A model generated the notes under the pieces. It was not told the origin of the DNA, ran no database searches, and worked only from the letters and a program-made list of their open reading frames with translations. DNA of 64,000 nucleotides, taken from assembly GCF_057098645.1 (NCBI RefSeq), contig NZ_CM169472.1; one strand, written 5' to 3'. Within the stretch, counting starts at the first letter, position 1. Every line of letters starts with the position of its first letter. Made by a program: the position numbers and the translations under genes. Shown here piece by piece: positions 35,929-36,321 of this stretch.

Positions 35929-36026
35929 AGTATCTATTCATCAATAGCAACTGATTTATAGATTTACTATTATTTTTCATATGGATAGAAAATAAAATAC
36001 ATTCAAGTATCTATTCACGAATCTAT

Positions 36027-36290
36027 TCATTTATGTTCAGCCGTCATCCAGGAAGGGCATATCAGCAACTCTGGTGGACAACCATAAATTTCTGCCATTT
36101 TGCTTTTGATGTTTGAGCTAAGCCGTTCCGTCTTTTCGATCTGTTTTAGAGAATTAATCGAGATACCTAACATTTTACTTACTTCAGCAAGCGATAATTT
36201 ATGCCTGATACGCACAGCGGCTAGCCAGGAAATACGCTGGCTGAACATTAAATTGATAATCTCCCGTTCCTGGTTTTCCAGATCGATCAT
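36027..36290 (-). CDS. Small XRE-family helix-turn-helix protein (87 aa)
   Basis: HTH segment LSLAEVSKMLGISINSLKQIE. SD AAGGA on the minus strand. Low GC with rare codons. Sits 31 bp downstream of lplA on the same strand. Confidence 0.5.
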   Translation of the reverse strand: MIDLENQEREIINLMFSQRISWLAAVRIRHKLSLAEVSKMLGISINSLKQIEKTERLSSNIKSKMAEIYGCPPELLICPSWMTAEHK

Positions 36291-36321
36291 ATTTCCTTCC
36301 CTGGATATTTTAATCAGCGAG

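Follow-up and report, generated by a model that had tools for sequence, protein, structure and literature searches.

The serine/threonine kinase YjjJ, or HipH, is a homologue of HipA that carries an N-terminal helix-turn-helix (HTH) and is encoded by a monocistronic gene (Gerdes et al. 2021, PMC8262856). According to that work the HTH 'may' bind DNA, and the control of HipH was stated to be unknown (PMC8262856); cyclic di-GMP (c-di-GMP) acts at the hipH promoter by an unidentified route (PMC11452175), and published work reports that the toxicity of YjjJ is neutralised by HipB. Here we describe the interval between deoD and lplA in a stretch of 64,000 nucleotides (NCBI RefSeq assembly GCF_057098645.1, contig NZ_CM169472.1; hereafter the window), in which an 87-amino-acid (aa) open reading frame (ORF) of the XRE HTH family occupies the slot that holds yjjJ in K-12, beside repeated copies of AGTATCTATTCA. 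We consider it probable that the window carries, at a locus that has long had two alleles, the one without hipH, and that the repeats are the HipH control region, left behind when the gene was lost. We found no description of these repeats, or of a HipH operator, in the searchable literature; the Reg-Seq preprint counts yjjJ among its promoters, and the accessible part of its supplement holds no yjjJ data.

The initial annotation of this DNA had stated that K-12 has yjjJ between deoD and lplA and that the window does not, and alignment to a K-12-type genome (ER1709) bore this out. In ER1709 the slot contains yjjJ (1332 bp, + strand), which abuts the stop codon of lplA, and the 87-aa ORF is absent, so that K-12 does not hold the same ORF beside an intact yjjJ. 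The two alleles are nearly identical from the 3' end of deoD through its terminator and the first repeat, and then diverge over a 56-bp spacer, after which identity returns over ATTCAAGTATCTATTCACGAATCTATTCATT(T/A)ATG. This ATG is the start codon of K-12 yjjJ. DNA homology between the alleles ends exactly there and returns on the right at the lplA stop codon; 286 bp (36036–36321) therefore substitute for 1329 bp of yjjJ. Read on the opposite strand, the relic ATG (CAT) is the His86 codon of the 87-aa ORF, the last two codons (CAT, AAA) and stop of which lie in the former yjjJ leader, and the stop itself, TGA at 36027–36029, is complementary to the three bases that end the proximal repeat. The interval as found in the window is 100% identical to that of E. 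coli O145 RM9872.

The iterated motifs reported in the initial annotation are present, as exact copies of the 12-mer AGTATCTATTCA at 35929–35940 and 36006–36017 and a copy with two mismatches at 36018–36029, and a further degenerate copy that it had missed lies at 35997. The true repeat unit is the 9-mer ATCTATTCA, with copies beginning at 35932, 36009 and 36021 and the degenerate form ATaCATTCA (2 mismatches) at 35997, which gives a copy-to-copy spacing of 65, 12 and 12 bp. K-12 has four exact copies of ATCTATTCA at −101, −36, −24 and −12 from the yjjJ ATG, and the geometry of the window array relative to the relic ATG at 36033 is identical. The window thus retains tandem ATCTATTCA copies with a 12-bp period abutting a start codon, together with the distal copy at 35932, which precedes the one at 35997 by exactly 65 bp; it lacks hipH directly downstream on the same strand, the coding sequence having been replaced. 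The T-tract of the deoD terminator continues into the distal copy. Counting 12-mers across the window is not significant by itself (4 matches versus 2.4 expected). Chance recurrence in AT-rich DNA, which the annotation had named as a possible source of the motifs, is ruled out by their clustering, the 65-12-12 spacing and the conservation of the arrangement across species.

For this conservation we scanned one genome per bacterial and archaeal species (298 Gb, both strands) for ATCTATTCA-N3-ATCTATTCA. The pattern yielded at least 120 loci against about 9 expected, the latter being our own estimate from 18 specified bases under an assumption of uniform composition. Counts of these loci, here and below, are among the matches listed. 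A YjjJ homologue (30–95% identical by tblastn) began 1–120 bp downstream on the same strand in 68 of the 120, and a profile of the N-terminal domain added two truncated hipH loci, raising the count to 70. The array precedes hipH homologues in at least 70 species besides E. coli, drawn from the Enterobacterales, Xanthomonadales, Burkholderiales, Steroidobacter and one Verrucomicrobia metagenome-assembled genome (MAG). An array of two or three copies with a 12-bp period was found in 65 of 66 hipH loci. An extra distal copy, outside the search pattern and with a background expectation of 0.007 per locus, was found in 44 of the 66, and in 31 of those 44 it stood at the modal spacing of 65–66 bp from the array. 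This distal copy lies upstream of the presumed promoter, frequently right at the terminator of the upstream gene. The repeats had been annotated as a feature of the 3' flank of the HTH gene; they belong instead to the upstream array of the missing hipH.

Several observations on these arrays stand apart from the survey counts. In K-12 and other enterobacterial hipH loci, the proximal array stops 1–3 nt before the hipH start codon, which leaves no room for a Shine-Dalgarno sequence and therefore implies unconventional initiation or a nearly leaderless mRNA. In a Verrucomicrobiaceae MAG the pattern occurs in five contigs (L005–L009) with no hipH downstream, and because two of these (L008 and L009) have flanks identical for at least 100 bp on each side, they suggest a repeated element that uses the same motif. 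The window itself has a fifth exact ATCTATTCA at 63814–63822, just past a TAA stop codon (63810–63812) and ahead of a terminator-like hairpin. Its position recalls the distal copies that follow upstream genes in Pantoea and Enterobacter hipH loci, and a single exact 9-mer of this kind is at chance level, with about 0.5 expected in 128 kb of two-strand sequence. As another source for repeats of the form TTCAC...TTCA, we had considered the CreB 'cre-tag'; it was dropped, as the period is 12 and not 11 bp and the association with hipH explains the motif.

A sample chosen independently of the motif consisted of eight plasmid-borne hipH genes found by tblastn. All eight had copies of the ATC-N3-TCA type upstream of, or overlapping, the annotated start, with at least two copies in seven. 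Tandem copies were canonical or near-canonical in four of the eight, and one locus (L127) had a single copy; in another (L130), two one-mismatch copies 12 bp apart overlap the annotated start, which is probably placed too far upstream. Two loci carried variant repeats, ATCTTCTCA in L126 and ATCGTTTCA in L128. About 30 E. coli plasmids (90–100 kb, non-mobilizable) carry a hipH paralogue 35% identical to chromosomal YjjJ. In the sole one examined (L129, plasmid pE2-2, NZ_CP048917.1), ATCTATTCA-TTA-ATCTATTCA places copies 26 and 38 bp before the start, and the recognition helix of the protein reads SQPTISR. A plasmid HipH of this type could, judging by this match, recognise the chromosomal relic in hipH-less hosts.

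An alignment of 34 HipH N-termini showed S25, T28, R31 and G43 to be invariant and Q26 and S30 to be nearly so. An AlphaFold model built on this alignment (predicted local distance difference test score, pLDDT, 90) is a winged HTH of three helices and a beta wing, in which residues 26–35 form the third helix, at the recognition position. By Foldseek, the first 52–55 residues of HipH match ArsR/SmtB-type winged-helix repressors with a root-mean-square deviation (rmsd) of 1.6–2.4 Å, the best structural matches being HlyU, CzrA, SqrR and BigR. This is a resemblance of fold alone, with weak Foldseek E-values for so short a domain, and the ArsR/SmtB repressors are stand-alone dimers whereas the HipH domain is fused to a kinase. 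At the sequence level Pfam gave no family match to the HipH N-terminus (MarR_2 at E 0.37 only), and a search of YjjJ against PDB chains gave no match.

Among the plasmid proteins, only the two encoded beside variant repeats depart from Q26 and S30, with helices SVATLHR and SRATLMR; the protein with the SRATLMR helix is the one with ATCGTTTCA repeats. The Vitreoscilla-type helix SV(A/P)T(L/V)HR marks a large subfamily in the Burkholderiales, and ATCTTCTCA repeats in a similar layout were found in three of four sampled members, a canonical copy in none of the four. In two of three further members, ATCTTCTCA copies lie distally at −86 and proximally from −30 to −18. That helix and repeat vary together is, from sequence comparison, the best argument at hand that HipH itself recognises the array. 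The array is thus most likely an autoregulatory operator of HipH, orphaned in the window, and Q26 and S30 are likely to be the residues that set its specificity.

We then asked how the two alleles are distributed. Among 5426 complete E. coli genomes, the full HTH-type interval was found in 4057 (~75%) and yjjJ in 1348 (~25%). The two alleles are essentially mutually exclusive and the K-12 form is the minority, which confirms the earlier suspicion of a variable locus. In O157 Sakai (NC_002695.2) the 87-aa ORF is annotated as ECs_5344, 'transcriptional regulator'; the adjacent lplA of that record (ECs_5345) is annotated at 1689 bp, spanning the site where other records have ytjB, and is probably an old start-site or fusion mis-annotation. 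In E. coli WB61 (L146, NZ_CP020025.1), yjjJ is cut after ~140 nt and joined to the last yjjJ bases and lplA, the partial gene being annotated as a partial 'transcriptional regulator'. Since the junction contains NN, this may be an assembly artefact instead of a third, true-deletion allele.

The order deoD–array–hipH–lplA is found in E. albertii, Citrobacter, Pseudocitrobacter, Siccibacter, Cedecea and other enterobacteria. Because of this synteny, and because the array is specific to hipH, we take the hipH allele to be ancestral and the HTH allele to be derived. The HTH allele is old, since it is common to several Escherichia lineages at a synonymous divergence like that of its flanks and has a positional homologue in another genus. 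Elsewhere, too, hipH has been lost independently with its array left behind. The locus of Enterobacteriaceae bacterium RIT691 (L041) has an intact array (distal copy, tandem pair and ATG), but in place of hipH comes an ORF whose product, apparently a multi-pass membrane protein, may resemble YjdF; here hipH would have been replaced a second, independent time at an identical left breakpoint. Another locus retains just an N-terminal fragment of hipH (L116), in another the gene is frameshifted (L104), and in three (L062, L098 and L110) the array stands without hipH anywhere in the locus.

Within hipH-less genomes, 6 of 36 positions of the repeat core were polymorphic versus 30 of 127 other intergenic positions, and this comparison detected no purifying selection on the relic repeats. 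Most strains with the HTH allele have ATCCATTCA at 35997 where the window has ATACATTCA. Two sequences (L137 and L142) have independently lost exactly one 12-bp unit, aligned to window 36001–36018, in what looks like a slippage-type change of copy number. From these patterns the relic repeats in hipH-less genomes look neutral, and the window array is most likely a functionless relic.

The ORF that replaced hipH is, as the initial annotation proposed, a small XRE-type HTH gene in low-GC DNA with rare codons. Its protein matches Pfam HTH_3 (PF01381) at E 1.2e-6 over residues 23–76, covering model positions 1–55 of 55; its GC content is 41% against 53% for the window, and 6 of its 88 codons are rare against 0 of 240 in deoD. 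It reached no curated NCBIfam cut-off, including that of any antitoxin model. A word-indexed homology search found the protein only in Escherichia and Shigella, with many truncated variants; the homologues include proteins labelled by NCBI as E. marmotae and Escherichia sp. E1130, and the contigs that encode these Escherichia variants share the order serB-ytjB-lplA-HTH-deoD. An exhaustive HMMER search added an 87-aa protein (P0079), 44% identical, a singleton in the protein database and with the same C-terminal tail, encoded between lplA and deoD in another enterobacterium (L143) whose lplA is ~80% identical in DNA to that of E. coli.

The same search added a group of XRE proteins of 95–133 aa, 28–43% identical to the 87-aa protein, with phmmer E-values of 1.3e-7 to 5.4e-4 in a library of 1.8 billion proteins. 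In two of the three contexts examined (P0097 and P0102), a ParE_toxin (PF05016) gene lies directly before the relative, the toxin-first, HigBA-like order of ParE/RelE modules with XRE antitoxins. The motifs VS(L/W)LxA(W/V)R and (I/V)Y(G/N)C, outside the generic HTH, are common to these antitoxins and the 87-aa protein. The latter aligns solely to their C-terminal HTH domain. It lacks the ~55 N-terminal residues that the relatives have and carries an additional 10-residue tail that ends in the hipH relic. Whereas the ParE/RelE antitoxins have an adjacent toxin gene, none accompanies the 87-aa ORF, and tblastn with two ParE sequences gave no match in the deoD-lplA interval. By these comparisons the protein is best described as the solo DNA-binding domain of a ParE-type antitoxin-like protein, without its toxin. 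The initial suggestion of a different small, antitoxin-like regulator therefore fits, its nearest distant relatives being XRE antitoxins encoded right after ParE-family toxin genes.

The ratio of nonsynonymous to synonymous polymorphism (pN/pS) of the 87-aa ORF averaged 0.27 over pairs of 11 sequences, versus 0.03 for deoD and 0.04 for lplA, values that are rough estimates from non-independent pairs. Its synonymous divergence was similar to that of its neighbours (0.09–0.26 among the sampled sequences), and the ORF was intact in 11 of 13 sampled sequences. The pN/pS value and the neighbour-like synonymous divergence, together with the occurrence of pseudogene alleles, point to a real but weakly constrained gene.

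The position of the ORF is given with the other features of the locus in Table 1. It lies downstream of lplA on the same strand across a gap of 31 bp, in which a terminator scan found no terminator-like site, and a purine-rich, Shine-Dalgarno-like stretch precedes its ATG at ~36294–36302; lplA and the ORF are probably co-transcribed. A promoter scan found no sigma-70-like match on the + strand of the relic spacer, the stretch in which the promoter of hipH-bearing genomes would be expected, and no Rfam RNA family matched within 35700–36500 at E≤1.

Table 1 Features of the deoD-lplA interval in the window
Feature	Position	Strand	Basis and remarks
deoD	end 35866	+	
deoD intrinsic terminator hairpin	35898–35925	+	Terminator scan; nearly identical in K-12
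Distal repeat copy, ATCTATTCA	35932–35940	+	Exact; −101 from relic hipH start codon, as in K-12
Spacer, 56 bp	35941–35996	+	Length conserved, sequence not; strongly diverged from K-12 between identical flanks
Proximal array, three tandem copies, 12-bp period	35997–36029	+	−36, −24 and −12 from relic start codon
87-aa XRE-family HTH ORF	36027–36290	−	ORF list; Pfam HTH_3; RefSeq annotation as helix-turn-helix protein
Relic hipH (yjjJ) start codon, ATG	36033–36035	+	Alignment to K-12, identity stopping right after ATG; left breakpoint
Replacement segment, 286 bp, GC 42%	36036–36321		Without homology to 1329 bp of K-12 yjjJ coding sequence
lplA	36322–37338	−	Stop codon 36322–36324 is right breakpoint of replacement

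Several points weigh against recognition of the array by HipH. Tagged YjjJ gave no binding sites in K-12 by chromatin immunoprecipitation with exonuclease treatment (ChIP-exo) under the conditions used (Gao et al. 2021, PMC8464067), and the same study recorded no predicted DNA-binding domain for the protein (PMC8464067). A hipH-like domain was not found downstream in 45 of the 120 motif loci, some of which are chance matches or satellite repeats, and the repeats of one variant-helix subfamily member (L150) are of mixed sequence. In enterobacteria, moreover, the proximal array is placed downstream of the likely −10 and ahead of the start codon, and would be transcribed too, so that it may have a role at the RNA level. 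Together with the missing Shine-Dalgarno sequence, the negative ChIP-exo result and the response of the hipH promoter to c-di-GMP, this would suit an array that works as RNA, in the 5' leader of the hipH mRNA, or that serves as binding site for a host factor other than HipH. We hold such a role to be distinctly unlikely, as the distal copy is placed ahead of the presumed promoter, often at the terminator of the preceding gene, a changed HipH recognition helix goes with a changed repeat sequence, and no Rfam family matched. We think it very improbable that the repeats serve the 87-aa protein as functional binding sites, whether to regulate its own gene or to control lplA read-through. Such sites would lie within and just past the 3' end of the ORF, as the repeats do, and the repeats are largely intact in HTH-allele genomes, the copy at 36021 being invariant in 13 sequences. 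That copy, however, holds the stop codon of the ORF, and core positions are as polymorphic as the DNA around them; K-12 has the same array and no 87-aa ORF, the array tracks hipH across bacterial orders in which the 87-aa protein does not exist, and the repeats covary with the helix of HipH, not with that of the XRE protein. In a further reading, the hipH and XRE-HTH alleles are functionally alternative idiomorphs long kept in Escherichia, with hipH in E. albertii, the HTH allele in E. marmotae and other clades, and an orphan array that is not inert. The array could then be a chromosomal decoy or target for plasmid HipH paralogues, or direct antisense transcription into the XRE gene. We regard this as a long shot.

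As for the ORF, the initial annotation had offered two origins that would tie it to YjjJ, as a deletion remnant of yjjJ or as an orphaned partner of the HipB type. There is some ground for either, in that YjjJ bears an N-terminal HTH (PMC8262856) from which a remnant could derive, HipB is reported to neutralise YjjJ, and genuine truncated remnants of hipH are found elsewhere (in L116 and perhaps WB61). We give both almost no credence. The ORF lies on the strand opposite to that of yjjJ, BLASTP of its protein against YjjJ gave no alignment better than E 0.2, and DNA homology stops at the ATG and at the lplA stop codon. The protein has an XRE-type HTH_3 domain where YjjJ has a winged HTH; the HipB model (NF007271, cut-off 79 bits) was not among its NCBIfam matches at E≤1, and its 95–133-aa relatives score just 21–23 bits against that model. 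Nor does a HipA-family kinase gene stand beside the ORF, which is alone in the interval, the HTH-allele genomes lacking yjjJ. A fate that we consider unlikely, although it has more to recommend it, is that the ORF is a non-functional, decaying fragment of an inserted toxin-antitoxin (TA) cassette that has stayed open by chance. Its low GC content and rare codons, a pN/pS exceeding that of its neighbours by a factor of about seven to nine, the many truncated protein clusters and the loss of the N-terminal domain and toxin partner of its relatives all agree with decay. So do two pseudogenes among 12 other sampled alleles (one internal stop and one frameshift), which also count against a maintained gene. 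The ORF is nevertheless intact in most sampled sequences, including those of the E. marmotae / Escherichia sp. E1130 type, across the synonymous divergence given above, and its pN/pS stays well under 1; another genus has a positional homologue of equal length, and the ORF has a Shine-Dalgarno-like sequence and an operon position behind lplA.

Under the favoured reading, the ancestral enterobacterial order would have been deoD–operator array–hipH(yjjJ)–lplA. In a lineage ancestral to most Escherichia, or donated into them, the hipH coding sequence would have been swapped out from just past its ATG to the lplA stop codon. The incoming 286 bp would have carried, in antisense orientation, the DNA-binding domain of a ParE-type XRE antitoxin-like gene, the new ORF running on into the former hipH leader for its last two codons and stop. 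The AGTATCTATTCA motifs would then be what remains of the hipH control region, namely the distal 9-mer, the 56-bp spacer and the 12-bp-period array abutting the start codon. Where hipH is present, the winged HTH of HipH would read the 9-mers through its conserved helix S-Q-x-T-x-S-R, and hipH would be repressed by binding on either side of its promoter and across it. We infer that an antitoxin-less kinase would thereby regulate its own expression as other type II TA modules do. In the window, with the cognate gene gone, the array would be drifting, and the 87-aa protein would be an XRE regulator that stands alone under weak constraint, its gene probably transcribed together with lplA.

There is nothing unusual in the relic; the operator that it exposes would be a new, apparently undescribed and deeply conserved control element of HipH. 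As HipH is a toxic HipA-family kinase without an antitoxin gene, the array provides a cross-phylum prediction of its operator, which covers the sequence of the 9-mer, its fixed geometry and the likely specificity residues Q26 and S30, and it offers a candidate site for the reported effect of c-di-GMP at the hipH promoter. Of the complete E. coli genomes, three quarters, O157 Sakai and O145 RM9872 among them, lack hipH and have an orphan antitoxin-like HTH gene instead, which matters when persistence or toxin results from K-12 are extrapolated to other strains.

The nearest described counterpart is yjjJ/hipH of K-12, in the same deoD-lplA slot, which has the deoD terminator and four ATCTATTCA copies in a geometry common with the window; K-12 retains the coding sequence, whereas the window keeps the start codon and upstream repeats alone. 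The likeness that we propose to hipBA is that the HTH of the module would bind repeated sites round its own promoter and so repress the gene of the toxin kinase. HipB is an XRE protein in its own right, and its dimers bind palindromic operators, whereas HipH has a winged HTH fused to its kinase, and its candidate sites are 9-bp direct repeats with a 12-bp period and a distal site ~65 bp upstream. With these differences, the predicted HipH operator would belong with the autoregulatory operators of TA modules, a known class.

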